From: a virus
Taxonomy: Duplodnaviria; Heunggongvirae; Uroviricota; Caudoviricetes
IMG/VR virus record: IMGVR_UViG_2681813421_000002
Location: 22,586-86,585 of that record
Reading direction: 5' to 3' (one strand)
Length of the DNA: 64,000 nt
Shown: in pieces, positions 40,284-63,078 of the stretch
Numbering within the stretch: the first letter of the stretch is position 1
Layout: every line of letters begins with the position of its first letter
The notes under the pieces: generated by a model
Databases searched by the model: none
The model's input: the letters and a program-made list of their open reading frames with translations, nothing else
What the model was told of the DNA's origin: nothing
Program-made: the position numbers and the translations under genes

Positions 40284-40304
40284 TGCTGTTCCCGTTACCT
40301 TGTT

Positions 40305-40325: not shown

Positions 40326-40363
40326 TTATTAGTTTGATGACGGTATCGGAAGATGCAATAAAC

Positions 40364-40390
40364 AAAAAACCCGCTAATTGGCGGGTTTTT
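40364..40390. terminator. Bidirectional rho-independent terminator
   Basis: CCCGC-TAATTG-GCGGG with A-run before and T-run after. Confidence 0.55.
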
Positions 40391-40396
40391 ATGCAA

Positions 40397-40711: not shown

Positions 40712-40893
40712 TCATCAGCGCTTGCACTTTCCGGGGTTATGTGAACCTTATCGCCAGTAACAATATTGCGAGCTTCAAAACTTCCATTGATACGTTTCGA
40801 GATCTCAATACATAGAGCCTGCTGCCATGAGCGACGACGAGCGATAGCATTAGTTCCTGCAGGGATAAGTTCTGCCACGTTAAGTAAACGCAA
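40693..40893 (-). CDS. Hypothetical protein
   Basis: 66 aa ORF. Confidence 0.3.
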   Translation of the reverse strand: MRLLNVAELIPAGTNAIARRRSWQQALCIEISKRINGSFEARNIVTGDKVHITPESASADDWEFVH

Positions 40894-40907
40894 AACGATT
40901 TCTCCGT

Positions 40908-41402
40908 TTAATCAAGACAAACATACTCCGTGATAGCTTTTATGGCTTCAGCGGCACTGCGCGCCTCAAAGCAGTAGTAACCGGCTTCAGTGAGGCGAGT
41001 CATCCAGACGAGTTGTTCGGGAGTCAGGCGATTTCTCCCATGTTTCATCTCAATGCGCATTCCGTGGTATCCCCCACAAGCAAGGTCTATAGAAAGATCG
41101 GGGTATCCCTTCTTTTGGCCCTCTGCCACCATTTTTATTGCCGTCCTTATGCCTCGCAGGCCACCGTTTGGAGTGGCGTGAGTATGCTCATACACATAAC
41201 GCATATTGCGATACAACCAGTCCAGGACGCGAACCTGCTCGTAATGCTCATGGTTCCTTTTGATTAGATCTGGGTTTTTCTCCAGTTCTCTAAGAGCTGC
41301 GGCATGTGGGGATGTTTCAGAATATTCACTGCGACGCCTTCTCTTTTGCGCTATTTTTCTAACACACTCATTGATAGTAAATATGCGAAATAATAACAAC
41401 AA
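40908..41402 (-). CDS. VRR-NUC domain nuclease
   Basis: 164 aa; HATPNGG...GYPDLSIDLACGGYHGMRIEMKHG (PD-(D/E)XK core). Confidence 0.6.
   Translation of the reverse strand: MLLLFRIFTINECVRKIAQKRRRRSEYSETSPHAAALRELEKNPDLIKRNHEHYEQVRVLDWLYRNMRYVYEHTHATPNGGLRGIRTAIKMVAEGQKKGYPDLSIDLACGGYHGMRIEMKHGRNRLTPEQLVWMTRLTEAGYYCFEARSAAEAIKAITEYVCLD
41351..41368 (+). promoter_or_regulatory. Operator-like motif (CTATTTTTCTAACACACT) within 5-prime region of VRR-NUC ORF
   Basis: Exact core TTTCTAACAC; position inside the annotated ORF is unusual. Confidence 0.35.
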
Positions 41403-41538
41403 CGTTAGATTTGTAAAACAAGAGAGATACTACTCAAGGATGGTCTATATGCAACAGGTCGGATTTGCTTTTAGAGTAAAGAGTGACCTTAATCAACAAG
41501 GAGGGTAAATCGCATGGCATTTACCCAACCTGTTATTT

Positions 41539-41799
41539 TTAAAGGGTTATTTTATCCTGTTCGGATAATTCTTTGATTGTCTTGTCGATTGCGATCAACC
41601 AACCTTCATAGGTTAAATCATCAACAAGTTCTACCAACTTATCATCGGTGTGAGGAAAGTATATCCAGCTCCAGTTCGCAGGGTTTTCTGCTTTTCGCAG
41701 CGTAAAAACCTTCTTGTATCGGTGGAACTCAAGGATATACCCCTTCGATATGGAATATTCCTTTAGGTCTTCGACCGTAAACCTACGATTCTTTCGCAT
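41539..41799 (-). CDS. Hypothetical protein
   Basis: 86 aa ORF. Confidence 0.4.
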   Translation of the reverse strand: MRKNRRFTVEDLKEYSISKGYILEFHRYKKVFTLRKAENPANWSWIYFPHTDDKLVELVDDLTYEGWLIAIDKTIKELSEQDKITL

Positions 41800-41801
41800 G
41801 G

Positions 41802-42236
41802 CTACCCCATAATTCGATATTTCTCTATAGACTCGTCGTAACTTGTGTACACGTATGGCTCTGTATCATCGGCATAAGGTGCGACTTCCAGAGCATGAAC
41901 AGGATTGTATACCGCGTCATTTTCCAGGCGATCGCTCGAATACAGATGCCCAGCCAAAACCGTAAGCGCCGGGCGACTCATTTTGTAGATCTCTGCCACA
42001 TCACTATCTACAACTTGTCCAAATGATATGTCGCCGCGCTCCAGCAATAACGTTTTAAGCGCAGGCCACCACGGCCCATAAAGGTGATAAAGCTGTGGAT
42101 CTCGTTTCAGCCTTTCCACCATGCCATTCAGATATGCATCCAGAAACGCCTCTTCACTCCTGCCATTGAGCGCCTGCGGCAAAATGTCCTCAAGGTAGGA
42201 TTCCGTCGGTTTTACAGTGTCAATTAATGTCGTCAT
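41802..42236 (-). CDS. Hypothetical protein
   Basis: 144 aa ORF immediately downstream of darB-like gene. Confidence 0.4.
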   Translation of the reverse strand: MTTLIDTVKPTESYLEDILPQALNGRSEEAFLDAYLNGMVERLKRDPQLYHLYGPWWPALKTLLLERGDISFGQVVDSDVAEIYKMSRPALTVLAGHLYSSDRLENDAVYNPVHALEVAPYADDTEPYVYTSYDESIEKYRIMG

Positions 42237-42272
42237 TCAAATTCGGCCCCAGTTGGGGCCGCTCCTTATCTG

Positions 42273-45200
42273 TTAGGCCGCATCGGCGATTATTTTACGC
42301 AGTTCATCTACCGAGTAACGCGTAGATACCATCCATGCAGGACGGTCAAAGTTCACATCAGCAACCGGGTTTGCTTCAAAATTCCAGAAACGCCCGCCAA
42401 TCTTCTTAATCGCGTCTTTGGCGTTCCGTATTGTCGAGGAACCTGGTTGGTCGGCAATGAGATAAACCGCGCCAACGTCCTCGCTGACGCTCCACCAGCG
42501 CCCGCGAACACGCGCCTTAGCGCGAATCGGCTTATCATTAACCACAATGATATAGTCATCATTCGCCGCTTCATCAGCTCTGGCTTCAGCCACTGCCGCC
42601 TGCTCTTCTCTTTTGCTTTCAGCCTGCTCAAGCCTTTCCGCGATCTCTGATTCAGTGGCCCCGCCGTTTTTCAGCGATACATAGTCCTGCCACGTTGCCG
42701 ATTTGAGCGTATCCGGCAACTCATTCACATAGTCGCCGTCTTTCAACTCACGGGCGCGGCGGGTAGCCATTTCTACCAGGCGATTAACAGAAACAGCATC
42801 AGCAAAATCGTCCTTACTAATGTGTTTTTCATCAAATGCATTGATGACAGCCCCCACCTTAATCCACTGTGCTGCCGGTGATTCCAGGGGGTTATCAGCC
42901 TGAACAATGGCGAGTTTAGCTCCATCTACCCCATTATTCGCCAGCTGTTCCAATGCCGCCCATCCATCTGCATCACTGAGTGATTTATATTGCTCAAACA
43001 ATGCATCGCGCCAGGCCACCAGCGCAGAACGTGTTTTTTCGATCTTCGCCTTAATTTTCGCGATCTTGACCTGATTAAACATCCGTTCAATATCATCGAT
43101 ATTGCTAAAGGCTTTCATCCTGCCCTGGAATAAACGGTATGCCAGCACGGTCCTCCAGAATGATTCCAGACCTTCTCCGGACGGTTTGCGGAACAAGCTA
43201 AGAATATCTTCAGAAGTGACTTTATTAAGCGAACGACCTGACAGACCACGCCCAGCCATCCAGTTTTCGAACTCCTGGGCAACATCATCCATCGTTGCCT
43301 GTGCGCCCCATGCCTGCATTCCCTGGATGTAATCATACCCATACAATGCCTGGAGGAATCCCTCGCCGTCCACGATATTCAGCGGGTTATCACTGGCTTG
43401 TATTTTTGCTACTTCACGCTTCAGCGCCTCGTCGTTGCCATCAGGATATATCCATCGCTCAGGTGCTATATCCGATGCTCGCCCGATTTTTTGGCCTATC
43501 ACGCCATCATAGGCCGATGACAGCGCGATCTGACCATCATCTGTGCGATATGCCCAGTATTTAATAGCTGACCCACCGCCCCATGCATTACCAGGTTTAC
43601 CAGCAATAACATTCATTACCCCATTGCGAATAGCATCATAGAACTGATCGCGAGTAAGTATTGTTGATAGCTGGTGGCACTGAACACCTCGCGCAGCCGT
43701 TGCGCGCGATTCAGCTACCCCCTCTTCAAAAGTTACCGCTTCAATCACAGAGTCAAACGGCAATGTAACGATTGACCCCGGTGCTCGAGCGTAACGACTT
43801 GCTCTATCCAGCCAGGCGATACGGCAGAGGTATTGTGCTTTTTCACCGTCAATTTTTTCCACCCGGACAATCGCTGTTGTTTCGCGATCATCAATGACTG
43901 CACGGTAATAACTACCTTTATGCAACAGGATATTCTTGTCAGTGCGCATATATTCCTGTGGGTTCTGAATAACATCGATACTGATATCCAGCACACCAGA
44001 CTTAATAGCGCGCTCCACATCACCACGAGAGCGTTTCATTATGGTATCCGCGTCTTTTGCCCTGGTGATCGCAAACCGCAGCACCCGCGCACGTTTTCTG
44101 TAGCTACTCAACTGCTCAAGTGCGTATTTTTGCCCATTCCTGTTCGTACCCGCTTTTATCAGGTCGTCAAGATTTCGCTGGTAATACTCTATCTGTTCCA
44201 TCGCGCTTTTCAGTTCTGTCTCCATCATGCCGATATCTTTTCCGGCGGCGTTTGCCGCTTTCAGGTAGATATCGAGAGCATTGTTGGCCTCGCGCTGTGC
44301 TTTCAGTTTCAGACGTTCTTCACGCTCTTGCGCCTGGCGAGCCATGATTGCGCGGCGTTCTTCCGGGTTTGCCGCCAGCATAATGGCGCGTTCATCAGCA
44401 TCATCCGCATCACCATTGGCGATCTCTGACATGTCGGAGGTCATCACCATCTTGATCCAGTCTTTCTTACGTTTCAGCGTATCCAGACGGAAGTCATCGA
44501 ATGTGCCTTTGCCACAATAGTAGTGAACATTGACCTTCTCTTGCGGTGACCCTACGCGCGCACCGCGCCCATTTCGTTGGTCGATACTGGCTGGTGTCCA
44601 GGGTAGTGTCAGGTGGTGGATATCGGTTGTCCCGATGTGCAGGTTAATACCTACTTCAGCCTTCTTGTTACAGATTATGATGCGCGTGCGACCTTCGTTA
44701 TAGTCGGCGGCAATACCTTCCATGCCCTCAAGGCCAGCATCATTTTTAGCTGAGAGATAATCCTCATATTGGGCAAGTTTGCTGTAGTAGGTTTCCCATG
44801 CCCCTTCTTTGTATTCACCGTTTTTATTCGGAGTAGGTTCAGTCGGTTTATTCACCTTCTTCAGCTTGATGCCGCCAGCTTGGCTAACGGTCGTCGCATT
44901 GATAATGCCTATCTCCTGCTCCGGCATTTGCAGTGCACTGGCGATAATACGGCGCAGCTTCTGGTGCTGGGCTTTTTCATCAATGAAGACAATTTGTTTA
45001 CCGTTCTTCAGACCTTCACGAAGGTTTTCGATCAGCGCGGCATACTTCGGTGGGATGGGGTGTGATACCTGCTGCAGATCAATCCCGGCGGCAGCAATGG
45101 CCTTCAGTATTTCAGCTTCCAGTTCAATGCTGGCGCGTATTTCAACATGCGCCGGATGTTCACTAAAGGTGGTCTTCACTACCTTGCTGGTACGCGTACT

Positions 45201-48200
45201 GACCAGTCCACCAGCGCCGTCTTCTTCGGCCTCGTCTGCATCATCTGCCACTTTACCGCCTGCGACTTTTGGCAGGGCATCAGCAATAGCTTTTACCTTG
45301 TCTGCAAGCTCAACGGGGAACTGGAATGTAATCGCACTGGCATACAGATCCGGATCTATAGCAACCTTATCCATGTCGCGGATGATGGAGAAGATGAAAT
45401 CATCCGGTTTGTCGTTAGTGATATGCCCGTTTTCATCGACTGTCAGCTCATCATTGCGACTTAACTCCTGAGCACGCTTACGAAGCTCTTCATAAGCAGC
45501 CTCCTGCTCCCCTGTCATCGGGATCTGCAAGGTGTTCTCGATGATATCGGGAATTTTAACCGTCGCTCCGACATCTGCGGCAGTCTTCAGAGTGGTCCAA
45601 CGGTGGAAAATACCACGCAGACCATCAAGGTTCTGGAAGCCCACCAGCCCCTGCTTCTCTTCCACCTCACCGGAAATTTTCTGAACCTGAACTGTGGCTG
45701 TTTTGCCGAACACGCGAACGAAATCATCCGGCGTAACAATACCCATGCGCATCCACTCTTCCTGCGGAATGACAGTAGACAGCATGTTGAAGGCATCAAT
45801 CGGACTGTTCACCAGCGGAGTTGCCGTCAGCATGACTACACCACGCCCGTTGTTGCGTTTCATCATGTACGCAGCTTTTACAGCCATGTCGCGGGCCATC
45901 TTGGATACTGCCGGGTTAGGCAAATATGCCAGTTGTCCCGCTTCACGCCCGGCATTAAAGGAGTTGCGGTAATTATGCCCCTCGTCGGCAATCACGCTAT
46001 CGAAGTTCATATCCTCAAAGTACGGGATATTCTGCTTCTTCGTTGTACCGGTATTCGCGGCCTGATCCTTAATCTTGTTCTTCTTCTGCGCATCACGGTG
46101 TTTACCGGACGCCAGGTCAAGACGCCCCATTTCCACAGCATTAAAGACAGCTTGCTGTGAGTTCTCCTCGATGGTTTTTTCTCGTAGCGGGATAGACGCG
46201 AATTGTTCTTTTGTCATGATGACCGTTCGCCAATTTGACGACGGGATCATGTTCATACGCTGAACGATAACGGCGCTGGCGGACTCTTTCACAACATTTC
46301 TGGTAAGAGGCTGCCCGTTACTGTCGAGGCGTGGTTCGCCATTTTCATCAAGCACCGGCGCGGTCAGAATATTTCCGCTGTCATCACGAACTTCATCCAA
46401 ACCGATAAACATCATATTGGCGAAGGCATCAGCACTGTAGAAACTCTGTGCCTCGTGATACCAGTTCTGATAAACCGCCTTCGGAACAACAATACACGTG
46501 CGTTTAGTGCGACCTGTTTCGAAGTTATACGCCTCAAGCGCAAGCGCGGTCGTGGTTTTACCCAGCCCGGTACCAAATCCCATGATGCCGCGCCCATCTT
46601 CTGACAAGCGCCGAACTTCTTCATTCTGATAAGTAAGAGGAATGCGCTTTCCACTAAGCCCTTCCAGGCCAAGCGGTGCGTCAGAATGTGTGAACGGAAT
46701 GAAACCATTGAATGCGTCGTTATAGTCACGGGCTATCTGATCCGCCTGCGGGTGGGTGCGTAACCAGTCGTTAAAGCTAACTTCCAGTTGAGCAATTTTA
46801 TCCAGGTACTCGTTAGCGTTCTGCCCACGCGGTTTAACACCGTTCAGGTAGTTTTCTAACTGGTTCAGGAAGCCGTCTTTATTGTTGGCCTTCTTGAACT
46901 CATTCCCGTTTTTGCCGTTTACGGTTCGTAGCTGATAGCCGGTAAATACCCCGTCCTTACCTTCGTAATCGTCCGGAGATACCAGAATGCCATCGACGAC
47001 CTTCAGATCAGGTTCAGTGTACTTAAACTCGTCATAGCCCTGCTCTGCCAGGAACTCTTTTATCAAGCGGCGATCCAGCCAGCGGGCATTCAGATTAACG
47101 GTGACTTTATTTAGTGGCGTGAAAATGCGTTTCTCTTCGATTTTCGCCAACTGACGCTCAAAGTTCGCTTTCTGCTCACCTGTTGACGCATCACGCCAGC
47201 CCACCAGCAGTGCTGTTTTGGTTGCAACATCGCCGCTGGTGGCGCGGTCCATCGGCAGCAGACAGCCATACCCATCAATAGCGATATCATCAAATTTCGC
47301 CAGGTATTCAAGGGCCGCGTCGTCGTCCTCTGGCAGTTCACCAGCAAACGCCTCACGAAAGTCGCCCAGCGTTATAGGATTAAGGGCTACATCACTAAAA
47401 AGATGTGCTATCACTTGTTCAGGACGCGTAAAGTCAATACCGGCAGCGCCATCCGTTACATCAAGTCGCCCTGCCAGAAGGTCAGAAGTGGAACCATCCT
47501 GTTTCACATTGCCAGTGAACGTCATCCAGTTTTTAGCGCCAGCTTCAGCAAGCCCATTCAGCTTAATCGCGTGCGGTGGTCCATACTTCGCAACTTCTGC
47601 TGCCGCCAGGCGGGATGCATCTGCCAGTTTGTCATCAACGTTCACCCCCAGGTTACGCAAATCAAGTGCCTTGTTGATCAACTGACCTATCAGTGCACCG
47701 CGCATAACGCGCTCCCTGTCTTTTTCTCGCTGCTTGCCAGCAAAGCGAATCATTGCTGCCACTTCATCACTGACAACCGATGGATAGTCAGACGCGATCG
47801 CCGATATCTGGTCCCATGACAAAGCCAGAATGCCATTTGTTGACTGAAACGCGATCTGCAGATCGCCAAACGTCGAAACACCATATCGACTTACATCAAG
47901 CGCGGAGGATTTGGTTGTCGTGTCCTTAACCCATTTCAGACCATCAAACTCATGCCAGATACCGCCTACAAGGCGTTTATCGCCCACTTTCGCGCCCTGC
48001 CATGCCTGAGTAGTTACGCCGAGCAAATCCCAATTGATGCGACTATCAAAGCGACGAGATAGCGCGGTTTTCATCGACTCATTGGATACACGACCGTCTT
48101 TTTTCACCACCAGGGTATTGCGGAAGCTGGTACGTTCCATGTCGCCGTAAACAAATCGCTTCCCTTCGGTTGTAAACCATTTTCCTTTGAGGAAGGTATC

Positions 48201-49184
48201 CCAAAGGACGTTTGCCGATTTGAGTGTTGAATCATCCGTGTCGGGGATCATCTCCAGGAAGGTTTCCGGGTGTTTACGCAATACCCATACGTCCACCACG
48301 GTATCTGTACCGGATTCGCTGAACGTACCGGAAGGCATACGATGTGCGCCCAAAAATTCCGCTTTACGGCTGACTTTATCGCGCAATTTTTTATATTTCG
48401 TACCATCGGTCATGCCATTTGGCACCACCAATACGATAAGCCCACCAGGCTTAACCTTGTCGATCGTGCGCAGCACAAAGTAATTGCCAACGTTCTTCTC
48501 GTTTGCATATGCCGGATCAAGCCCGGCAACGCCGGAACGCCCTTCACCAAACGGTACGTTACCAACAGCGTGGTCATACATTGCATCTTTCGCCGCCAGC
48601 GCCTCAAACGCCCCGATATTCACATCGTCTTCCGGGTGCAAAAGCTGGTTTATTCGACCGGAAATCGGAGACAGTTCGGCGCTGGTCATTATCATGCCCT
48701 GTCGTTTTGTCTCCTGGAAAATACCTGTGCCCGCTGATGGTTCCAGTACGTGCCCGCCATCAATACCGTAGTCAGCAAACAGATCCCATATACCTTCAGC
48801 CATAAACTGTGGCGTGTAGTATTCGTATTGGCTGCCCTCTCCATCTGTCAGGCCGCCTTCACCGGTATACCCAGCAAGAATCTGACGTTGTTCGTCAGTT
48901 AATTTCGCCCCATCGAAGCCGGGCGGAAGGGAATTAAGAAGATTTACTGCGGCATTGTTTGCTGCCCGGCGTGTTTTCTGAATACTGACGCCATCGGCTT
49001 TCCTGACGCCAAAGGTCGCAACAGCTCGTAATTTATGCAACCGACTAACAATTTCAATCAGTTCGCCTAAGCTGGAGGCTTCACTGATTGAATGAAGTAG
49101 TTTGTCCAAAGGATTTCCCCCTCTAAACCGTAAAAATTCCGCTATGCGGTACGGTTGAGAGGGTATGGAGAATGTTATTTTCAC
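42273..49184 (-). CDS. darB: DarB-like antirestriction protein (N6-adenine methyltransferase domain plus SF2 helicase)
   Basis: 2303 aa; VLEPSAGTGIF (SAM-binding) and NVPFG near N-terminus; helicase motifs GTGLGKT, DEGHNYRN, TATP further on; size matches P1 DarB. Confidence 0.8.
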   Translation of the reverse strand: MKITFSIPSQPYRIAEFLRFRGGNPLDKLLHSISEASSLGELIEIVSRLHKLRAVATFGVRKADGVSIQKTRRAANNAAVNLLNSLPPGFDGAKLTDEQRQILAGYTGEGGLTDGEGSQYEYYTPQFMAEGIWDLFADYGIDGGHVLEPSAGTGIFQETKRQGMIMTSAELSPISGRINQLLHPEDDVNIGAFEALAAKDAMYDHAVGNVPFGEGRSGVAGLDPAYANEKNVGNYFVLRTIDKVKPGGLIVLVVPNGMTDGTKYKKLRDKVSRKAEFLGAHRMPSGTFSESGTDTVVDVWVLRKHPETFLEMIPDTDDSTLKSANVLWDTFLKGKWFTTEGKRFVYGDMERTSFRNTLVVKKDGRVSNESMKTALSRRFDSRINWDLLGVTTQAWQGAKVGDKRLVGGIWHEFDGLKWVKDTTTKSSALDVSRYGVSTFGDLQIAFQSTNGILALSWDQISAIASDYPSVVSDEVAAMIRFAGKQREKDRERVMRGALIGQLINKALDLRNLGVNVDDKLADASRLAAAEVAKYGPPHAIKLNGLAEAGAKNWMTFTGNVKQDGSTSDLLAGRLDVTDGAAGIDFTRPEQVIAHLFSDVALNPITLGDFREAFAGELPEDDDAALEYLAKFDDIAIDGYGCLLPMDRATSGDVATKTALLVGWRDASTGEQKANFERQLAKIEEKRIFTPLNKVTVNLNARWLDRRLIKEFLAEQGYDEFKYTEPDLKVVDGILVSPDDYEGKDGVFTGYQLRTVNGKNGNEFKKANNKDGFLNQLENYLNGVKPRGQNANEYLDKIAQLEVSFNDWLRTHPQADQIARDYNDAFNGFIPFTHSDAPLGLEGLSGKRIPLTYQNEEVRRLSEDGRGIMGFGTGLGKTTTALALEAYNFETGRTKRTCIVVPKAVYQNWYHEAQSFYSADAFANMMFIGLDEVRDDSGNILTAPVLDENGEPRLDSNGQPLTRNVVKESASAVIVQRMNMIPSSNWRTVIMTKEQFASIPLREKTIEENSQQAVFNAVEMGRLDLASGKHRDAQKKNKIKDQAANTGTTKKQNIPYFEDMNFDSVIADEGHNYRNSFNAGREAGQLAYLPNPAVSKMARDMAVKAAYMMKRNNGRGVVMLTATPLVNSPIDAFNMLSTVIPQEEWMRMGIVTPDDFVRVFGKTATVQVQKISGEVEEKQGLVGFQNLDGLRGIFHRWTTLKTAADVGATVKIPDIIENTLQIPMTGEQEAAYEELRKRAQELSRNDELTVDENGHITNDKPDDFIFSIIRDMDKVAIDPDLYASAITFQFPVELADKVKAIADALPKVAGGKVADDADEAEEDGAGGLVSTRTSKVVKTTFSEHPAHVEIRASIELEAEILKAIAAAGIDLQQVSHPIPPKYAALIENLREGLKNGKQIVFIDEKAQHQKLRRIIASALQMPEQEIGIINATTVSQAGGIKLKKVNKPTEPTPNKNGEYKEGAWETYYSKLAQYEDYLSAKNDAGLEGMEGIAADYNEGRTRIIICNKKAEVGINLHIGTTDIHHLTLPWTPASIDQRNGRGARVGSPQEKVNVHYYCGKGTFDDFRLDTLKRKKDWIKMVMTSDMSEIANGDADDADERAIMLAANPEERRAIMARQAQEREERLKLKAQREANNALDIYLKAANAAGKDIGMMETELKSAMEQIEYYQRNLDDLIKAGTNRNGQKYALEQLSSYRKRARVLRFAITRAKDADTIMKRSRGDVERAIKSGVLDISIDVIQNPQEYMRTDKNILLHKGSYYRAVIDDRETTAIVRVEKIDGEKAQYLCRIAWLDRASRYARAPGSIVTLPFDSVIEAVTFEEGVAESRATAARGVQCHQLSTILTRDQFYDAIRNGVMNVIAGKPGNAWGGGSAIKYWAYRTDDGQIALSSAYDGVIGQKIGRASDIAPERWIYPDGNDEALKREVAKIQASDNPLNIVDGEGFLQALYGYDYIQGMQAWGAQATMDDVAQEFENWMAGRGLSGRSLNKVTSEDILSLFRKPSGEGLESFWRTVLAYRLFQGRMKAFSNIDDIERMFNQVKIAKIKAKIEKTRSALVAWRDALFEQYKSLSDADGWAALEQLANNGVDGAKLAIVQADNPLESPAAQWIKVGAVINAFDEKHISKDDFADAVSVNRLVEMATRRARELKDGDYVNELPDTLKSATWQDYVSLKNGGATESEIAERLEQAESKREEQAAVAEARADEAANDDYIIVVNDKPIRAKARVRGRWWSVSEDVGAVYLIADQPGSSTIRNAKDAIKKIGGRFWNFEANPVADVNFDRPAWMVSTRYSVDELRKIIADAA

Positions 49185-49259
49185 GGGGACGATACTACCG
49201 TCAAAATCACATACTCCCCATAGTTTGCCTACTTATTAACCCATGACCGGGAGAAAAAT

Positions 49260-49745
49260 ATGGCAAACATTGAACCTCGCTGGCTAATTGAAGCCCGTAA
49301 GCACATTGGCCTGACTGAAATAAAAGGCGCTAAACACAACCCTGAAATCGTTCAGTTCTGGCGCGACATCAAGCGCGGCGGAATTAAAGACGATGAAACG
49401 CCGTGGTGCGCAGCATTTGTCGGTGCAATGCTGGAACGTGTAGGCATCCGCTCAACAAGATTTGAGTCGGCAAAATCCTATCTGGATTGGGGCGAGAAAT
49501 TAGATACACCGGCATACGGATGTATCGTTGTATTTACCCGCGTAGGCGGTGGGCACGTAGGCTTCGTTGTCGGACGCCGCGCCAATGGCGATCTGCTTGT
49601 CCTGGGTGGGAACCAGGGGGATGCGGTTAATATTCGCGCATTCCCAACATCAAGAGTGTCTGGCTATCGCTGGCCTGCTGGCGAACCACGCAATACCGCT
49701 TTGTTACCAGTCGGAGACGCAGCAACCTCAACTAATGAGGCATGA
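49260..49745 (+). CDS. Conserved phage protein with Cys/His pair (possible CHAP/NlpC-P60-like hydrolase; TIGR02594-like)
   Basis: 161 aa; ETPWCAAFV ... GGGHVGFVVG. Confidence 0.4.
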   Translation: MANIEPRWLIEARKHIGLTEIKGAKHNPEIVQFWRDIKRGGIKDDETPWCAAFVGAMLERVGIRSTRFESAKSYLDWGEKLDTPAYGCIVVFTRVGGGHVGFVVGRRANGDLLVLGGNQGDAVNIRAFPTSRVSGYRWPAGEPRNTALLPVGDAATSTNEA

Positions 49746-49769
49746 AAAAAGCCCCGGCCAGGCCGGGGC
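49745..49769 (-). terminator. Rho-independent terminator (minus strand)
   Basis: GCCCCGGCC-A-GGCCGGGGC followed on minus strand by a T-run. Confidence 0.5.
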
Positions 49770-49777
49770 ATCACGCT

Positions 49778-49978
49778 TCAAGTCACGATCCAATCATTAC
49801 CGACTATATCAGCCGTCGATAAATAAACTTCCCGGATCTTGAGTCCATTAATACAAAACCATCCGGTAGTAGAGTAATTATCAGGCCAGGCCCATACATC
49901 AATACTCCATGCTTTACGGCGGCACACTTCAGCCTGTCCTTCCCTGATTTTTTTTACCGCCTGCATGATGTCCATCAC
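49778..49978 (-). CDS. DUF2829-like small protein (free-standing counterpart of the ant C-terminal extension at 10294-10490)
   Basis: 66 aa; KIREGQAEVCRRKAWSIDVWAWPDN...DIVGNDWIVT aligns with C-terminus of the 313-aa antirepressor. Confidence 0.5.
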   Translation of the reverse strand: MMDIMQAVKKIREGQAEVCRRKAWSIDVWAWPDNYSTTGWFCINGLKIREVYLSTADIVGNDWIVT

Positions 49979-50682
49979 TCACCTCCCCAACCGATCACCT
50001 GGAATTGCCCCATTTTGGGGTGATACCAGCGTTTTCCTCGGTGTTCAGCCTCCGACATCATCCGGTTAAAAGCATTCATGAAGGGAGATAAGGCCACGAT
50101 GGAACGACGCGACAATACCCCCTCTGGAGTTAAAAACTCATGCGTATCGGTGGGAATCCGGTAAGCGTTGACAAGGTTGCGGCATTTGGCTTCGGTCAGG
50201 CCACATTTCGCAGCCAGCTGGCGGTAGCCAATGTAGCCATCTGGCATATTGCCTTTCTTGATTTGCTCAACGGTTTCAGCGACCTGGCTAACCTTTGACT
50301 CAACAGCATGAAGCCGCTTTTGCTGCTGAACTGCATTTGCAGCCATTGCGGCGATCATCTCTATTTCGGTCAACGGCTGGCGTACTTGTTCTTCCAGTTC
50401 GCGCCAGCGGTCCACCAGCCGGGCGGTGAATTCCGGAGAGAGCTGCGCAACGACAATAATGCTGTCTCGTTTGCCTTGCTCGCCTTCGAAGACGTAGTGT
50501 GAATTTTTAACTTTAAATCCTAAGTTATTGATATTTTCGGAAACCTCCATTGGAGGAAGTGGAATAACACCTGATTTACTCAAGCGTTCAATAGTGCGTT
50601 TAACGTTATCCGGGCGACTTCCCACCAGCTCCGCGATCTCAATGCTGGTCATTGATGGCTTTTCAAGAATGCAGATTTCCAT
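49975..50682 (-). CDS. ant: Antirepressor-like protein (Rha-type), paralog of 10294-11235
   Basis: 235 aa; shares N-terminal (MTSIEIAELVGSR...) and central (YIGYRQLAAKCGLTEAKCRNLVNA) blocks with the other copy. Confidence 0.6.
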   Translation of the reverse strand: MEICILEKPSMTSIEIAELVGSRPDNVKRTIERLSKSGVIPLPPMEVSENINNLGFKVKNSHYVFEGEQGKRDSIIVVAQLSPEFTARLVDRWRELEEQVRQPLTEIEMIAAMAANAVQQQKRLHAVESKVSQVAETVEQIKKGNMPDGYIGYRQLAAKCGLTEAKCRNLVNAYRIPTDTHEFLTPEGVLSRRSIVALSPFMNAFNRMMSEAEHRGKRWYHPKMGQFQVIGWGGE

Positions 50683-50906: not shown

Positions 50907-50929
50907 AGTTACGGCCTCATTCGTAGGTT

Positions 50930-52473: not shown

Positions 52474-52482
52474 ACAAGGCGA

Positions 52483-55973: not shown

Positions 55974-56267
55974 TCAATTCACATCAATGTCTTGATATGA
56001 TTCGCCAGTATCGTCTTCGTCGTCAGGATCTCCTTCCACCTCTGGCCACTCAACCTCCCAGCCAACAGTTTCCAGGCTCCGCAGAACAAACACCCCATCG
56101 GCATGAATGGTATTCACGATCCCCATTGCGGAATTTGTGTTGATAAAGCGTAAATCTTGCGCAATATTTTCTTCCGAAATATCGCCTTCAAATATACGCA
56201 ATGTGCCGTCATCAGAGCATTCAACAATCCCTCTAATCCCAGCGGGACTCACAATGCTATACTTCAT
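55974..56267 (-). CDS. Small acidic protein at distal end of Dar operon
   Basis: 97 aa, D/E-rich C-terminus. Confidence 0.35.
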   Translation of the reverse strand: MKYSIVSPAGIRGIVECSDDGTLRIFEGDISEENIAQDLRFINTNSAMGIVNTIHADGVFVLRSLETVGWEVEWPEVEGDPDDEDDTGESYQDIDVN

Positions 56268-59200
56268 TTTGCAACTCCTTCATACATCCCAAGAAAAATT
56301 CCAGCACGCCGTCATTGTTTAATACAGAGTTAGTCGCCTGCTCCGGATCGGCATACATCTGCAAGGCCATAGAAAAAATCTCAGTCGCCCTGCAATTGCT
56401 TAATGCAGGTGGCTTTGATATAAATCTGCCGCTGACAGAACTTACCGTATTTTCCATATAAATTTTAGACATATATCCATGACTTAGGTCGGTTCGCACC
56501 AAATACTCAGCACTGCCACGGCTACCAATATTATGATAAGAAACTTTACCGTTAGTTTTTGATTTAATGAAGGCTTTGGCCCTCTCCAATAGATGGGGAT
56601 TTGAATGTTCTATATGGTGACCTATTTCATGCCATAATACACGCTCGTGATCACTATTAGCATCAATTGTTATATTCCCATTTCGACTTGCAAAAGCACG
56701 AACATTGTTCTTGTGGTTAATATTTTTTAATGTAGATAAAGTCCCTCCTGAAATAATATAGGCTTTTTCAATCGTCTCGCGAATACTGTATGCTTTACGG
56801 GAGAAAGTTTCATTATCGTGACCACTTAACTGCTCTGCTTCATCAGAAATAGCAATCCCACGACTCCATTCCTTAGACTGGTCATGTGACACATTTGACG
56901 ATTCAAGAATCATGTCAAATGCGGCTCTGACTTTTTTATGTACTACATTTTCAAGCGCATTAGGATAGGCTTTTTGTCCACGTGTTAATGAAGCTATTTC
57001 ATATAGTTCTGCTTGCAAGTCTTCCGGTATGTCCAGATTAAAAACAAGCATTTTTTTCAGATCATATCCAATCCCATGATCATTCTGGTGCAAAACCTCA
57101 GCAAGGTAGTCAGTGAGTTTTTCCTTATTTGACCTAACTTTATTGATTTGTTCTATAGTAAAGTCAACACGCTCCTTGATTCCGTAATATGAGGAATGCT
57201 CTGCTAATTCCACTATCTCCTTAAGCCTGACAAGTGTCTCAATATACGCATCAGCGATCTCCTCTGCCGTTAGTTCAGAGCTAACTCCGACACTGGCTGT
57301 TATTTTCCTACCAGCCGCCATAATATCGTCGATATTATGCAAGCTCTTTTTGAATAACTTCAAAGTATTTTGGATTATGCACACCATCTCTTCTGCGCTT
57401 CCAGCTTTATTCATTTCCTTTCTAAATCTTAAAGCTGTTTTCTCTGCAATAGACGCTGGAGATTTTAAATAGTTACCTAACCAAACAAGACAACCATTGC
57501 GCAATTCATCAATACTAAAGTCATCAGGAATATGTTTTGCTGCATTATGTAAAACACGTATAAATTGTTCAGCGGGCACGCCTTCTTCTGATATGTTGCA
57601 AAACGTTTCAATATCACAATCAATATTTCTTTCATCTGCGAGCGAAGGAGCTTCATCTCCTTTTTCAATCGCGTCACGCAGTGCGTTAGCATAAAAATTG
57701 CTGCGTTGATAAGACAATAACATCGTTGTTAACACAGCGTCGCTGTATCCATAACGTTTAGCCCACTCCTTAATCTCATTAACGGTGACATTGCGAATAT
57801 AAAAACCAAGTTCCAAAAATACATTGCGCTTTATTTTTTTTGCGGACTCCTTAATTTTTTCTGACACCTTCACGATTCGGATCAAGTCCTCCACGCTGGT
57901 CGCATCAGCAATTAGCTTTGAAATGTATGGTTCGACATCTCCTGAAACCGATTCAAACATGGCGAAATTAAGCCCTTTACCTTCGCCATACTCAGCCTCA
58001 ATTTCATCAGAAACGGCAGATAAAATGCTACGCAGATCGACATCTCCGCCGCCGAACATATCGCCTAACGCTTGTTGCTGGTGAATAAGTTCATCGTTAA
58101 TTTTTTGCGCCAGTTTCTTGAAAGCTGCCCCCATTCGCTTAGCGCTTCGGTTGTTGGCAACAATAAACAGAGCAAGCGCTTCTGCTTCCGGAGTGCTATC
58201 TCCAAACAATCCACGCTGTGCGATCACCTCTTCTACTGCCTGACCGTTATCTTTTGCTTCACGAACAAGGTTAATTGCTTCCTGTAGCGCGGCAATAGCC
58301 TGTTTATCCAGACCATTCAATTGCTCTATACCGTCTACCAGTCCGGTTACCGTGTCATGGTGAACATCACCTGAAAGCGACTGCATTTGCGCAAAATCGC
58401 TGGCTGCCGTATTTAATGCGGTAAGAATGTTACGCATTTCCGGATCTGGCTCTTCCGCCACCAGCCGAACAAGCCTTTCATCCTTGTACGCTTTGGCAAA
58501 AATTGCATTCTGGATGCGGTCGATAAGTTGTTTCGTTGGACGCCCATCGGCAGTAAGCAAACCTGCCGTCGCCGTATCACCTATTTCGCGCAAAAACGCA
58601 CGAATAAACGCATCATTGGACCGCGCCAGTAGATTTCCATCATCTGAAGGATTAAATAGCGCCATGACGCTCTCAGTGAGAAATTGCGCATCCGCATACG
58701 CTTTTTCACTTGCAGCCATCTCTTGCAGATCGCTGATGTTTGAATCACGGGCAAATTGTGCGCGGTCTACATCTGTGAGTCTTTCTCGCACCAATACGGG
58801 CATAGACATTTGTGAAATGTCGTCAGGATTCAGACCAAACTCTTTTGCATGATCGATCAGGTACTGGCGATATTCATCCGCCTGCCCTTGCTCATAGGCA
58901 CGCCAGATACCCATGCTCCTTCCGTTGCCGGATTCAACAACGTTGTCCGGACCAACTATCGGCGCTCCGTGGCTGCTCATGCCGGAATCCGTTAATTGTG
59001 CCGGGCGTAAATTGGAGGCAATACGGTTAACCTGGAGTTTGCTTGATAGCCGTGTACGGTCACGTGGCTGGAGTTCTTCCGGGAAGGCCGGATTAATCGT
59101 ACCGTCAAGGTTGTTCGAAATGATCAGACTGCTGGCATCAACGACCTTAAAAGCCGTCTTTACCTCTGCCCCTTTACTGGTGACTACGTAACTACTGCGC

Positions 59201-59298
59201 CCCTGGCGTGTTTCTCGCCTCTCTAATGAAGAAACCAGCGCAATAACACTGTTAATGTCTGCTGCTTCGGATAGCGCGGAAGTAACTGACTTGTTCAA
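56257..59298 (-). CDS. ddrB: DdrB-like large virion-associated antirestriction component with C-terminal HExxH motif
   Basis: 1013 aa; position and size match P1 ddrB; WHEIGHHIEH near C-terminus. Confidence 0.5.
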   Translation of the reverse strand: MNKSVTSALSEAADINSVIALVSSLERRETRQGRSSYVVTSKGAEVKTAFKVVDASSLIISNNLDGTINPAFPEELQPRDRTRLSSKLQVNRIASNLRPAQLTDSGMSSHGAPIVGPDNVVESGNGRSMGIWRAYEQGQADEYRQYLIDHAKEFGLNPDDISQMSMPVLVRERLTDVDRAQFARDSNISDLQEMAASEKAYADAQFLTESVMALFNPSDDGNLLARSNDAFIRAFLREIGDTATAGLLTADGRPTKQLIDRIQNAIFAKAYKDERLVRLVAEEPDPEMRNILTALNTAASDFAQMQSLSGDVHHDTVTGLVDGIEQLNGLDKQAIAALQEAINLVREAKDNGQAVEEVIAQRGLFGDSTPEAEALALFIVANNRSAKRMGAAFKKLAQKINDELIHQQQALGDMFGGGDVDLRSILSAVSDEIEAEYGEGKGLNFAMFESVSGDVEPYISKLIADATSVEDLIRIVKVSEKIKESAKKIKRNVFLELGFYIRNVTVNEIKEWAKRYGYSDAVLTTMLLSYQRSNFYANALRDAIEKGDEAPSLADERNIDCDIETFCNISEEGVPAEQFIRVLHNAAKHIPDDFSIDELRNGCLVWLGNYLKSPASIAEKTALRFRKEMNKAGSAEEMVCIIQNTLKLFKKSLHNIDDIMAAGRKITASVGVSSELTAEEIADAYIETLVRLKEIVELAEHSSYYGIKERVDFTIEQINKVRSNKEKLTDYLAEVLHQNDHGIGYDLKKMLVFNLDIPEDLQAELYEIASLTRGQKAYPNALENVVHKKVRAAFDMILESSNVSHDQSKEWSRGIAISDEAEQLSGHDNETFSRKAYSIRETIEKAYIISGGTLSTLKNINHKNNVRAFASRNGNITIDANSDHERVLWHEIGHHIEHSNPHLLERAKAFIKSKTNGKVSYHNIGSRGSAEYLVRTDLSHGYMSKIYMENTVSSVSGRFISKPPALSNCRATEIFSMALQMYADPEQATNSVLNNDGVLEFFLGCMKELQNEV

Positions 59299-59391
59299 AA
59301 TACACTCCCCTTACATAGAAAGCAGGAAGTGTAAAAAGTGTGTGATTTATGGACTTACAGGAAAGTGAAAGGGGCATTTCAGCCCCTTTGA

Positions 59392-59766
59392 TTACCCTGC
59401 ATAACCGTTGGCTTTCACCCAGCTTATGGTCTGCTCTTTAGCCTGTTCCAACGTAAGGAACTCGCCAACATAGTTTGAGATCCCACGCAGCGCATCAATA
59501 AATTCCATTTGTGTGGACTTTGTGAACACACCGCCCAGGAAGTCAGTCACTATCTTAGGAACTTCATCTGCAACAGGATCAGACTGTGGGTGCGGTTGCG
59601 GTTCCGATATCGGTTGAGCGGCAGCACCCAGCCCCAGCTTAAGCATCAGATCAACAATCTGCTTACCAATTGCGACGCGTTGTAATACTGGCGCGGTTTT
59701 CTGCGCCTGCATTAAATCTGATAGCTCTTTACCCAATTTCAGACGGTCTAAAACAGAGATAGTCAT
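59392..59766 (-). CDS. ddrA: DdrA-like protein (positional call)
   Basis: 124 aa between darA-like and ddrB-like genes. Confidence 0.4.
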   Translation of the reverse strand: MTISVLDRLKLGKELSDLMQAQKTAPVLQRVAIGKQIVDLMLKLGLGAAAQPISEPQPHPQSDPVADEVPKIVTDFLGGVFTKSTQMEFIDALRGISNYVGEFLTLEQAKEQTISWVKANGYAG

Positions 59767-61709
59767 TAAGCACCTCCCTGCTGAATTTCAGCCAGGATGT
59801 TGATCAGGTAGTCAACTGCTGCGCCAACCGTTGATTCGTTCTCGTCGTATCGACCAGCACTGATAAGAGCGTTTGCAGCTTCCTGCACATGGTCAAGTTC
59901 GGCACTGATTACCGTCAGATCGCGGGATGTAAACTGCACCGGGACGGATTTAAGGTACTCCAACGCTTTATCTGCTTCCTGATCAGCTTCAGTTGCCGCT
60001 TCTCCAGCGTCTTCCGGCGTTGGCTGTTGCTCTGGTTCTGTTTGTGGGTGGGATTCTGGCTCAACTACAGGTGCTAATTCAGGCTCTGGCGTTGCTTCGT
60101 TTGAATGATTTTGAAGGGCGTTATATACGTCCATAATGAAAAGGTTCTCCCCATCACCAAGCGGATAAGCCACGTTTGGAAACGCTTTGCGGAAAAGAAT
60201 TTTCACTTGCGCCTTGAATGTTTTCAGGTCACTGCCAAACAGGTCTACATAGCCATCAATATGTTTCGACATGCTGGACACAACCAATTGGCCTGCAAAA
60301 TCTTTCAGCTCATCTTCATCAGGAAGATAGAGCAACTCGTACTGGCTGACTTCTTCATCTGTCAGTTTACGGTCATACGTAATGATACCGTGACGAGCAT
60401 ATTCATAATACTGATCAGCCTGGTCAGGACGATCAAGCACGGCTTTATTTCCATCCGGAACAGCACCAACACCAGCCGGACGAGATTGAAGTGCATAGTG
60501 GTATTTACCTACATCCTGGCTCTCTGGTTGTGATACTGGGTTCGTCTCGGGGTCTGTCTGTGGTGGTTCGGGGTCTTCCTGCTGGCCTGGTAACACATCA
60601 ACTTTATATTTATCTGCGTTATGCTCTCGGTAGGCTTTAAGTAATTTGGTTGCAGCATCTGCCAAACTGCCTCCTTTGACAGCACTGGCATCAATACTGA
60701 ATTTACCTTCAGGTGCTACTATCGTAACGAAATTATCACTGCCGGACGTGACATAATTAACTTCAGCGCCATTATCCAGCACTGTTTTTCCGTCAATGGC
60801 AAGATTATGTTTTACATGTCGCAGCTGGTCACTAAACGCTCGTTCTTTCGTTTTTTCACCTTTAGCAGACAACAATTTATCGCGTTTTGCTTGTAATTCC
60901 TCGTTGATGGCTTTCTGGGCATCAAGTTTTTTTTGCATCTCCGTAAGAGCAGCACGCTTTTCAGTCAGCCCACGTTGCGCAACTTCCACCTGATCAATCA
61001 TTATTGACCGTTCTTCTGCCAGTTTATCTGCTTCATTGAGATAACTCTCAATATCTGCCTTCATTTTGTCCTGGCGCTCTTTTGCTTTCTTAAATTTTTC
61101 GCTGTTACGCTCAATCAAATTAGATAGCGCCTGGCATACCTGGCTTAAAGAAACATCTCTCCCACCAATCGGGGCGACAACGTGAGTTACGTTACGTTTA
61201 TTAAGTAAAAACTGAAATGCAACAAGCTCGTCGTTACTCTTTATTTTTGCCCCGTCAGCTGTTGGAGAGTGGAAAATTATGCTTGTACTCTGCCCGTCAG
61301 TAAGCGGTATCTGCGCGGTCAAAACAGGGATATTAGCTACCCGACGTACACGACCGATAATCGCACCTCCAATACAATTACGTCCATTTTCATCGGTCCC
61401 AGCTTCATCAGTCCCTGCCATAATATTCGTACCATTCAGGCCACGATTCAGCGCACGGACGAAAGCTCGCATTGTTTGAGCTAACCGAATTCTGGTTGTA
61501 GTTATGGACTCAAACATAGCTTCGTCAGACACAACCAGAATTTCATTGCCCATATAGGCAAGCTCAATATCTTCTAAGGTCGCCGCCTCAAAAATCAGGT
61601 CATCTTCGCTTAATTCTTCTGAAGACCAGCGACTTGGCATATAGCCGGGGATCGTATCAGCAAAAGTAGACTGAATATTAATTCGTAAAGGATTGTTAAT
61701 CATGCTCAT
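59766..61709 (-). CDS. darA: DarA-like antirestriction/head protein
   Basis: About 647 aa; internal coiled-coil and Pro/Glu-rich linkers; operon position hdf-darA-ddrA-ddrB. Confidence 0.5.
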   Translation of the reverse strand: MSMINNPLRINIQSTFADTIPGYMPSRWSSEELSEDDLIFEAATLEDIELAYMGNEILVVSDEAMFESITTTRIRLAQTMRAFVRALNRGLNGTNIMAGTDEAGTDENGRNCIGGAIIGRVRRVANIPVLTAQIPLTDGQSTSIIFHSPTADGAKIKSNDELVAFQFLLNKRNVTHVVAPIGGRDVSLSQVCQALSNLIERNSEKFKKAKERQDKMKADIESYLNEADKLAEERSIMIDQVEVAQRGLTEKRAALTEMQKKLDAQKAINEELQAKRDKLLSAKGEKTKERAFSDQLRHVKHNLAIDGKTVLDNGAEVNYVTSGSDNFVTIVAPEGKFSIDASAVKGGSLADAATKLLKAYREHNADKYKVDVLPGQQEDPEPPQTDPETNPVSQPESQDVGKYHYALQSRPAGVGAVPDGNKAVLDRPDQADQYYEYARHGIITYDRKLTDEEVSQYELLYLPDEDELKDFAGQLVVSSMSKHIDGYVDLFGSDLKTFKAQVKILFRKAFPNVAYPLGDGENLFIMDVYNALQNHSNEATPEPELAPVVEPESHPQTEPEQQPTPEDAGEAATEADQEADKALEYLKSVPVQFTSRDLTVISAELDHVQEAANALISAGRYDENESTVGAAVDYLINILAEIQQGGA

Positions 61710-62316
61710 CCTCCAGGCGCGCGATTTCTTCTTTAAGAGCACGTGTCTTAGCTACTTCCTGAGACAAGGCAGCTTTAACGTTACCCGTATCTTGTATTAC
61801 TTTGTCTGACTTGCTCTGGAGTTTAGACAGTTTGTCGTTAGCATTAGCGATATCTTCACGGAGTGCATCACGTGATTCTTTCGCTTCAGCTAATTTCTGA
61901 GCGTTAGATTTAACTCCCTGCCGCTTCTTATTTCCGTCATCAATATTTTTTGCTGCACGAGCAAGTTTTCGAGCTAATGACTTCTGGAAAGAAGTTGCTC
62001 CGCGATTAAATAAAGCCGCAAGAGATTGCCCCAAAGCCGACATTGTTTTTACTGGCTTGAACGGTACTGTTTTACCATTCAGTTTGATCCCAGATATATC
62101 ACCGGTATCGTTAACCTGAACTTCCATTGTCTGTTCATCAATACCAATAAGGGTAAACGTGCGCGTCATGATCCCATCTTTCTTCCTGCCATTACTTGCA
62201 GGGATCACCCTCGCTATCTTGTAACCACCTTTGCTGATTTCTTTGACGAGTTTTGCCAGCCCCTTTTCGTTTAACTCATCATAATTAAGAAGAACATAAT
62301 TATTCTTATTTGACAT
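61696..62316 (-). CDS. hdf: Hdf-like protein (positional call)
   Basis: 206 aa between lydB-like and darA-like genes. Confidence 0.4.
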   Translation of the reverse strand: MSNKNNYVLLNYDELNEKGLAKLVKEISKGGYKIARVIPASNGRKKDGIMTRTFTLIGIDEQTMEVQVNDTGDISGIKLNGKTVPFKPVKTMSALGQSLAALFNRGATSFQKSLARKLARAAKNIDDGNKKRQGVKSNAQKLAEAKESRDALREDIANANDKLSKLQSKSDKVIQDTGNVKAALSQEVAKTRALKEEIARLEDEHD

Positions 62317-62752
62317 CCCAGTCTCCTTTACGCTTTTCGATCGTAAACTGGCGCTCTATGCAGTCATTGATAGGGAAAATGCGATAAAGCGGATTCAGTC
62401 GGCAGTTACCGTTAGTCAATGTGACTTTCAGATCCCACTTCGTTGGCTCAAGATATTTCGTATCGATGAGCAAATACTCTTCTCTCTCACCGCGTTTTGA
62501 GGCGTCAACTGGTCGCGTTTTCCCTGAAATAACCACAGATGGATTTTTCAGGTCTTGCAACCAATATTCGATTTGAGCATTGCTGACCCAGCTTCGCTTA
62601 ACACGTAGCGAAACAGGAAATGCTATAGCGGATTCTTTCACTACAGCGTCACCAATACTCAAAATCTCAACACTCTTGCGACGAAAAATGAAACGGTCAA
62701 TGATGGCAACAAATGCCATGATAAAAATGAAATAATTTCCAAAGTTACCCAT
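62306..62752 (-). CDS. lydB: LydB-like antiholin (positional call)
   Basis: 148 aa with N-terminal hydrophobic segment, downstream of holin-like gene. Confidence 0.45.
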   Translation of the reverse strand: MGNFGNYFIFIMAFVAIIDRFIFRRKSVEILSIGDAVVKESAIAFPVSLRVKRSWVSNAQIEYWLQDLKNPSVVISGKTRPVDASKRGEREEYLLIDTKYLEPTKWDLKVTLTNGNCRLNPLYRIFPINDCIERQFTIEKRKGDWDVK

Positions 62753-63078
62753 TATTTCTCTCCACCTTTTCCCCCATTCGCTATTACGCTTAAGAGATTC
62801 AAGACGTTACTAGCTCTGGACTTCAAGCCCTGTAAAATTTCACTACCGTTGTTACTGGCAATCAGAACAACGCAGAAAATGATACCTTCAGGCCATTCTT
62901 GGCTAACCGCCACCCCATACCCCGCAAGCCCGGCTGTTACCGCAGTAAACAATTCACTCGCAAGATTGAGCAGGGACGCAGAAATGCGCCCGTCTCTAAC
63001 TCCGAGAAGGAATACGCCGGTTCCACTTAGTAGGGATGTTATGACTACTACAGCCAGATTTTCATAATCTGCAAACAT
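62752..63078 (-). CDS. lydA: Holin-like membrane protein (LydA-like)
   Basis: 108 aa with three hydrophobic helices and charged C-terminus. Confidence 0.5.
   Translation of the reverse strand: MFADYENLAVVVITSLLSGTGVFLLGVRDGRISASLLNLASELFTAVTAGLAGYGVAVSQEWPEGIIFCVVLIASNNGSEILQGLKSRASNVLNLLSVIANGGKGGEK

Follow-up and report, generated by a model that had tools for sequence, protein, structure and literature searches.

The darB-ulx locus of a phage D6-like plasmid prophage as the probable second locus of a complete six-protein Dar system

A giant gene on the minus strand of a 64,000-nucleotide (nt) stretch of viral DNA was analysed (IMG/VR record IMGVR_UViG_2681813421_000002, positions 22,586 to 86,585; the whole stretch is called the window here). 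The window is a plasmid prophage of the P1 family that resembles phage D6. The DNA of the giant gene is 98.6% identical to that of Escherichia phage D6 (MF356679), and the two elements are collinear over window positions 37344-55229 and 57953-63216. Judged from its sequence, the gene is darB, which is already annotated in phage D6, where the GenBank entry of the product D6_15 (ASR76325.1) reads 'defense against restriction; similar to P1 gene darB'. The partner gene ulx and the split of the Dar genes between two loci are also already known, being annotated for D6 and well described for P1, and there is nothing unusual in the separate locus or in the partner. All six Dar proteins are encoded within the window. 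Our data indicates that the darB-ulx operon, with or without the short 86-residue reading frame behind it, is very probably the second of two loci that together make up a complete Dar (defence against restriction) system of six proteins. DarB would be delivered with the virion and would protect the entering DNA against type I restriction, likely through a methylase that is carried by a translocase.

DarB of the window differs from D6 gp15 at 17 of 2,278 residues (99.25% amino acid (aa) identity), and the two genes differ by point substitutions only. It is collinear with the DarB of P1 and P7 (AAQ13985 and YP_006479), which has 2,255 aa against 2,278 aa here. BLASTP aligned it with P1 DarB from end to end at 40% identity over 2,372 columns (E=0), and at 43.5% across residues 1-1935. 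A preliminary description of the gene, made from the letters of the sequence, had credited the protein with the domain content of P1 DarB, that is an N-terminal methyltransferase (MTase) and a central superfamily 2 (SF2) helicase. The Pfam families, the motifs and the whole-length alignment all agree with this. Profile searches gave five Pfam families (N6_Mtase, Eco57I, SNF2-rel_dom, ResIII and Helicase_C) that the two proteins have in common and that lie at corresponding positions in each of them, and the same pattern was seen in two more distant full-length relatives. In PHROGs the protein had a full-length match, together with matches to P1-type and 'DarB-like antirestriction' families. The order of parts is that of P1, with an LPD36 region, an HsdM-like MTase, a linker, an SNF2 helicase and a DarB-specific tail, followed directly by ulx. 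Identity to P1 DarB is 50-55% in the N-terminal/MTase part, 29-46% in the linker, 47-69% in the helicase and 19-26% over the last ~680 residues.

The MTase region carries GYTGEGG, the LPD36 GxG[GAS] motif, and the TP cap EYYTPQF, which are aligned to GYTGEGG and EYYTPKP in P1. This LPD36 motif and a TP-capped helix before the MTase core define the methylase-helicase dyad (Iyer et al. 2017, PMC5512222). Motif I reads EPSAGTGIF and motif IV reads GNVPFG; the tetrad of the latter is thus NVPF and not the canonical NPP[YF], and P1 has the same variant. For Pfam N6_Mtase, with a cutoff of 20.4 bits, the domain taken by itself scored 26.1 bits, while the score of the complete protein equalled the cutoff, and the PDB sequence match of the domain was 7eew, the methyltransferase subunit of a type I restriction-modification (R-M) system. 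In the helicase module, SNF2-rel_dom scored 46.5 bits, ResIII and Helicase_C were likewise above their cutoffs, and the PDB sequence match was the INO80 ATPase. Its motifs are kept as in P1 (I GTGLGKTT, II DEGH, III TATP and VI QRNGRGARVG). No Pfam family was found at E<=1 in the linker (residues 321-820) or in the tail (residues 1601-2278), and at the same threshold neither a nuclease nor a target-recognition domain came up in Pfam, whether the protein was scanned in full or in its unannotated regions.

The gene had been described as a 2,303-residue open reading frame (ORF) at 42273-49184. The frame itself holds, being an uninterrupted minus-strand ORF of 2,303 codons when counted from the GTG at 49184, but its 5' end does not. 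The Shine-Dalgarno sequence, the alignment with P1 and stop codons in other alleles point to the TTG at 49109, which is almost certainly the true start of darB and gives a protein of 2,278 aa. This TTG has the Shine-Dalgarno sequence AGAGGGGGA 7 nt upstream, and as codon 26 of the long ORF it is the codon with which Met1 of P1 DarB aligns. The same TTG was used by the D6 authors and by RefSeq PGAP, the latter for a plasmid of 99.6% identity, and 6/6 alleles have kept it, some of which are only 87% identical at the DNA level. The GTG precedes the TTG by 25 codons, and in this interval in-frame stops are present in the alleles of D6, CP058654 and E. fergusonii; in the D6 allele there is also a 1-nt indel upstream of the TTG and the GTG is changed to CTG. 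The GTG was rejected as a start codon, since it has no Shine-Dalgarno sequence and its frame is closed in other alleles.

It had also been stated that no ulx-like partner of darB was obvious. This statement has to be reversed, as a ulx homologue starts 36 nt downstream of the darB stop codon. Its product has 46% identity with P1 Ulx (E 7e-45) and 100% with D6_14, which is annotated 'similar to P1 gene ulx', and its PHROG family is 1629, 'Ulx-like anti-restriction' (2.3e-59); in P7 the corresponding protein is named OlxA. In a tblastn survey Ulx homologues were found in exactly 21 phage records, all of the P1/D6 type with near-full-length DarB, and in each of the 21 the Ulx coordinates lie just past the DarB match on the same strand. 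In P1-type records Ulx lies ~1 kb beyond the end of the DarB alignment, which fits an unaligned tail. The annotations show darB and ulx as direct neighbours in P1, in D6 and in three diverged alleles from plasmids. The start of an 86-aa ORF lies 3 nt past the stop codon of ulx, at the position that is occupied by lxc (bof) in P1, and the darB-ulx transcription unit probably ends with this ORF. Its identity to D6 orf13 is 100%, and it belongs to PHROG 6844, a family of unknown function. In P1, lxc overlaps ulx by 4 nt and is followed by the EcoP1 mod-res genes, whereas ulx of the window is followed by the unrelated 86-aa ORF and by no R-M system. The ORF was considered as an Lxc homologue and rejected, as it gave no alignment to P1 Lxc whatever. 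Taken as a whole the locus is that of D6, with the same TTG, identical Ulx and 86-aa products, the same divergent gene upstream and a pmgM-like gene downstream.

The other Dar proteins are encoded in an operon of the lydA-lydB-hdf-darA-ddrA-ddrB-hxr-like order (Table 1), in which LydA and LydB are 43% and 34% identical to the P1 proteins by BLASTP. The stop of ddrB (56257) and the start of darB (49109) are 7,147 nt apart, as compared to 7,213 nt in D6 and 7,305 nt in P1. Thus the separation of darB from hdf-darA-ddrA-ddrB by about 7 kb, to which the preliminary description had drawn attention, is correct as a distance but is no peculiarity of this element. With gaps of such similar size in P1 and D6, the layout with two Dar loci is the ancestral one of P1. 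The immI-like, RepL-like and head genes that had been placed between the loci were indeed found there, in the form of an Ant/Icd immI-type module, RepL, the Pro protease and the portal. In full, the gap holds portal, Pro, RepL, Icd, an Ant-type anti-repressor, a 66-aa ORF (orf17) and a divergent gene for a protein with a CHAP domain, unlike the gap of P1, which holds hxr, isaB, IS1, isaA, ssb, lyz, lydDE and an inverted pro-prt. The window also differs from D6 within the first locus. Where the window has a full-length ddrB of 1,013 codons and the hxr-like gene, D6 has a 454-aa ddrB with orf23 and orf24. It was observed that window positions 55230-57952 depart from D6 and that the GC content goes down to 0.40 at 56-58 kb.

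The reading frame of darB is under purifying selection. In five pairwise comparisons of alleles the ratio of nonsynonymous to synonymous substitution rates (dN/dS) was 0.05-0.10 overall with 0 frame disruptions, and it was lowest in the MTase region (0.02-0.07). The tail was 2-3 times more relaxed in two comparisons (dN/dS 0.15), still under purifying selection. The synonymous rate dS varied several-fold by segment and by allele pair (the window against L001 and L005 to L008), and against E. fergusonii it was 0.28 in the tail and 0.9-1.2 in the rest of the gene, which indicates that the darB alleles are recombination mosaics. Recognition sites of type I enzymes in the window were counted against expectation, with 6 against 9.2 for EcoKI, 13 against 11 for EcoBI and 3 against 6.3 for EcoAI. 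These numbers are close to chance. There is no avoidance of type I sites, so the element does not escape restriction by loss of sites, and an active countermeasure is plausibly needed.

In P1, DarB is a head protein of ~250 kDa, present in ~40-45 copies per virion (PMC9024508, PMC12810830), and its N-terminal 30 residues are sufficient to target a reporter to the capsid (PMC9024508). It is the last Dar component to be incorporated, a step that requires Hdf/DarA and in which DdrB and Ulx assist, and mutants of darB, ulx and ddrB are sensitive to EcoB/EcoK (PMC9024508, PMC12810830). The protection acts in cis on the injected DNA, and in the proposal of Iyer et al. the EcoKI-like adenine methylase travels along the entering DNA on the SNF2 translocase (PMC5512222). 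From its orthology with P1 DarB, DarB of the window would be made as a 2,278-aa protein during lytic growth. Hdf/DarA, DdrA and DdrB would go into the procapsid first, and DarB would follow by means of its N-terminal targeting sequence, with Ulx aiding its localisation. DarB would then be carried in the head in tens of copies, be co-ejected with the DNA and protect this DNA in cis against type I restriction of the EcoK/EcoB type. In the cell the SNF2-type translocase would move the fused HsdM-like adenine MTase along the incoming duplex, which would be methylated or occupied before the type I enzymes of the host could cleave it. We infer the packaging order, the targeting signal, the EcoB/EcoK phenotype and the cis action for the D6 lineage from P1, and the step of methylation and translocation is likewise inferred. 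Residues 1-30, which stand at the position of the P1 targeting sequence, may target the capsid here too. Residue 1 lies opposite residue 1 of P1 DarB, and about 8 of the 30 residues are identical as counted on the BLASTP alignment (~27%).

Several points weigh against this reading. The N-terminus is ~27% and the C-terminal third ~22% identical to P1, so the packaging partners or the range of targets could differ; the low identity of the N-terminus would fit co-evolution with capsid partners that have diverged to the same degree. No convincing P1-type late promoter (AAGT[G/T]ACT box plus -10) was found upstream of darB in strict and relaxed scans, and the annotation of P1 itself gives only a predicted sigma-70 promoter, PdarB, for the gene. 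The NVPF tetrad is not canonical, and the methyltransferase activity is a prediction that stands unproven. Finally, the biochemical mechanism of DarB has been called undefined (PMC11109961). The last two points also speak for the strongest alternative, in which the same gene protects without methylating. DarB would then travel on the entering DNA, or occupy it, as a translocase driven by ATP or as a roadblock, and type I enzymes would be displaced or stalled, with the MTase-like domain serving only to bind DNA or S-adenosylmethionine (SAM). The NVPF variant is shared by the window, P1 and most lineages, no other part of the protein is as conserved as the helicase module, and P1 protects any packaged DNA in cis, so that sequence-specific modification is not required (PMC5512222). 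However, motif I, which binds SAM, is kept across lineages of 36-53% identity, as are Asn and Phe in motif IV, and one of these lineages has the canonical NPPF. Such conservation indicates that DarB catalysis is under selection, and the lowest dN/dS of the gene lies in the MTase region. A purely mechanical DarB is possible and, in our judgement, rather unlikely.

It could also be argued that the locus acts through its DNA, in that Chi and type I sites on replicating DNA trigger ClpXP-dependent alleviation of restriction. Cloned P1 darB DNA alleviates EcoKI restriction by way of Chi and EcoKI sites even if it carries premature stops (PMC11109961), and the window is rich in Chi (GCTGGTGG), with 46 sites against 1.8 expected, and 0/100 shuffles reached 46. 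Seven of the sites lie inside darB, at 42492, 43016, 43670, 45208, 45641, 47201 and 47235, and richness in Chi has been reported for P1 as well (PMC11109961). A role of the DNA alone cannot explain why a frame of 6.8 kb is kept open at a dN/dS of ~0.06 with all catalytic motifs intact. Moreover, P1 DarB is detected in virions, P1 darB deletion mutants are sensitive to restriction, and the DNA effect is treated in PMC11109961 as a cloning artefact to be controlled for and not as the function of DarB. This explanation is very improbable. Least credible of all, and scarcely worth retaining, is a defence enzyme of the prophage that benefits the host (DISARM/BREX-like, or a methylase-helicase of a type I/III/ISP R-M system), for although NCBIfam gave partial matches to DISARM DrmD, DpdE and a Dnd restriction helicase and Pfam ResIII is common to DarB and R-M enzymes, the NCBIfam matches score 28-44 bits where 500-1,100 are required and are limited to the generic C-lobe of the helicase, and DarB is a full-length orthologue of a proven virion protein that is linked to Ulx and to the darA operon. 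As single candidates, a DISARM or other defence SNF2 helicase (DrmD 44.4 bits against 610, DpdE 31.7 against 500, a PLD anti-phage protein 40.4 against 1,100) and a type I/III/ISP R-M enzyme (no nuclease or target-recognition domain by Pfam, and no significant fold match of the tail model) were both rejected. Delivery of DarB by the virion and protection of the entering DNA is thus the reading that is retained here.

The C-terminal tail of DarB evolves fast. Its alignment with the P1 tail, at the low identity given above, is collinear with an E value of 4e-10, and it scored 49 bits as compared to a maximum of 23 for 30 shuffles. A word-indexed homologue search with the tail returned only fragments of 83-99% identity. 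When 1.84 billion cluster representatives were searched exhaustively with HMMER, only 26 matches were returned. All the full-length ones were proteins of 2,190-2,302 aa that have the tail at the C-terminus, are 36-53% identical to DarB of the window from end to end and show the same layout of motifs. More distant DarB-like proteins have the LPD36-MTase-SNF2 core in common with DarB at 25-34% identity. These proteins, methylase-helicase 'polyvalent proteins' (Iyer et al. 2017) of Bcep22/BcepMigl-like, Ralstonia, Xanthomonas (Rb1) and Bordetella (PHB04) phages, match residues ~66-1640 only and have neither the P1/D6-type tail nor a Ulx homologue; many are far larger, as illustrated by PHROG 10089 with 4,647 positions. 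On these sequence comparisons the tail is confined to proteins of the size of DarB, and Ulx is confined, among phage records, to P1/D6-type phages with a near-full-length DarB alignment. Because the two are distributed together, they could act together, which is a hint and not a proof. An AlphaFold2 model of the tail from a single sequence was unusable, with a predicted local distance difference test score (pLDDT) of 40; a model from an alignment of 13 sequences reached a pLDDT of 84.9. Foldseek searches of this second model against BFVD and PDB gave nothing at E<=0.001 and just resemblances of ~60 residues to Tudor/KOW/SH3-like barrels.

The darB-ulx-orf86 genes look like a transcription unit of their own, because terminator-like hairpins stand on both sides of them, at 49769-49751 and at 41526-41503. 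A candidate sigma-70-like promoter was found in front of darB by consensus scan, and the number of such matches in the darB region was not above chance. Between this candidate and the TTG the leader could fold into a hairpin that would pair with the Shine-Dalgarno sequence. Its minimum free energy is -25.9 kcal/mol (z -4.1), and 0/200 shuffles were as stable. In a consensus fold of four alleles 13/13 pairs were kept, with one compensatory change. This is suggestive of a translational control element of darB, weakly so with n=4 alleles. One could go further and suppose that the tail is a module partnering Ulx, for Ulx-dependent docking in the capsid or for specificity towards restriction enzymes, that the D6-type tail gives an anti-restriction spectrum unlike that of P1, and that the leader hairpin gates the translation of darB. 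As a whole this proposal is speculative and we hold it to be improbable. In the related plasmids NZ_AP027688 (L007:1107-1478) and NZ_CP099330 (L008:1108-1479) an extra ORF of 123 aa is present upstream of darB, after the divergent CHAP gene; the window and D6 are without it, and a PHROG search of this ORF gave no family.

Table 1. Features of the darB-ulx locus, its flanks and the first Dar locus (window coordinates)
Feature	Position	Strand	Remarks
darB coding sequence	42273..49109	-	TTG start, 2,278 aa + stop; orthologue of D6 gp15 and P1 DarB
First 30 codons of darB	49020..49109	-	Position of P1 DarB N-terminal capsid-targeting sequence
LPD36-like region and HsdM/EcoKI-type N6-adenine MTase (residues ~31-320)	48150..49019	-	Pfam N6_Mtase 152-282, Eco57I
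Linker (residues 321-820)	46650..48149	-	No Pfam family; 29-46% identical to P1 DarB
SNF2-type SF2 helicase/translocase module (residues 821-1600)	44310..46649	-	Pfam SNF2-rel_dom, ResIII, Helicase_C
DarB-specific C-terminal tail (residues 1601-2278)	42276..44309	-	Fast-evolving; coiled-coil stalk, small beta-barrel, helical domains and C-terminal beta domain in predicted model
ulx homologue	41802..42236	-	144 aa
86-aa ORF	41539..41799	-	Position of P1 lxc (bof)
Terminator-like hairpin, weaker	41526..41503	-	Directly after 86-aa ORF
Leader hairpin	49119..49163	-	CCCUCU pairs with darB Shine-Dalgarno AGAGGG
Candidate sigma-70-like promoter	49177..49204	-	TTGACG-16-GAAAAT; spans GTG 49184
CHAP-domain/TIGR02594-family protein	49260..49745	+	161 aa; divergent from darB; Pfam CHAP 2.7e-7; TIGR02594 143 bits (cutoff 70.6)
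Terminator-like hairpin, strong	49751..49769	-	8 G-C pairs + T run; closes upstream minus-strand immI/repL genes
lydA-lydB-hdf-darA-ddrA-ddrB-hxr-like operon	55974..63078	-	BLASTP to P1 proteins
Hxr-like ORF	55974-56267	-	97 aa; 41% to P1 Hxr; after DdrB, as in P1
DdrB	56257-59298	-	1,013 aa; 44% to P1, full length; ddrB-ParB domain 1e-41
DdrA	59392-59766	-	34% to P1
DarA	59766-61742	-	38% to P1
Hdf	61696-62316	-	40% to P1

The divergent gene upstream of darB had been noticed earlier for the pairs of Cys and His in its product, and this product was found to be the CHAP-domain protein of Table 1. It is outside the Dar system. Its counterpart D6_16 is annotated as 'putative peptidoglycan hydrolase', and the CHAP-domain protein may be a stand-alone peptidoglycan hydrolase. 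It also matches the C-terminal end (987-1146 of 1,179) of the PHROG 'baseplate hub subunit and tail lysozyme'. Elsewhere in the window, a minus-strand ORF of 191 aa (34705-35280), equivalent to D6 orf6, has a domain like that of the Thoeris anti-defence protein Tad2 (PF11195, 3e-9, 37.7 bits against a cutoff of 25), and RefSeq names its homologue 'Tad2 family protein'; on this domain match it would be a second counter-defence gene of the element. The tRNA cluster at 35734-37840, on the minus strand, encodes Met(CAT), Ser(TGA), Thr(TGT) and Arg(TCT). The tRNAs annotated in D6 (Asn, Thr and Ser) and in the closest plasmid (Arg, Tyr, Thr, Ser and Ile) are both unlike this set, and over roughly 35810-37007 in this region the window has no alignment with D6. 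At the other end collinearity with D6 stops at ~63216. The final ~780 bases (63217-64000) are 99% identical to the recombinase/tail-fibre region of E. coli prophage records PV468777 and CP025887, so the window would have an invertase/tail-fibre module unlike that of D6.

Full-length D6-type darB was found in 113 plasmids of PLSDB from Escherichia and Salmonella, nearly all of them non-mobilizable and of ~90 kb, and in 93/5,426 complete E. coli genomes (~1.7%). Of the 375 places matching darB in the complete E. coli genomes, a count that takes in P1-type partial matches, 369 are plasmid-borne. D6-type Dar systems are common, and the phage-plasmids on which they reside are able to carry resistance genes. 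For the gene itself the value of the present analysis is corrective, in that the start is the TTG at 49109 with a protein of 2,278 aa, ulx is present and the gap of ~7 kb is ancestral. The divergent tail, its co-distribution with Ulx and the candidate leader that would sequester the Shine-Dalgarno sequence are minor new points, which may offer handles on the mechanism of DarB.

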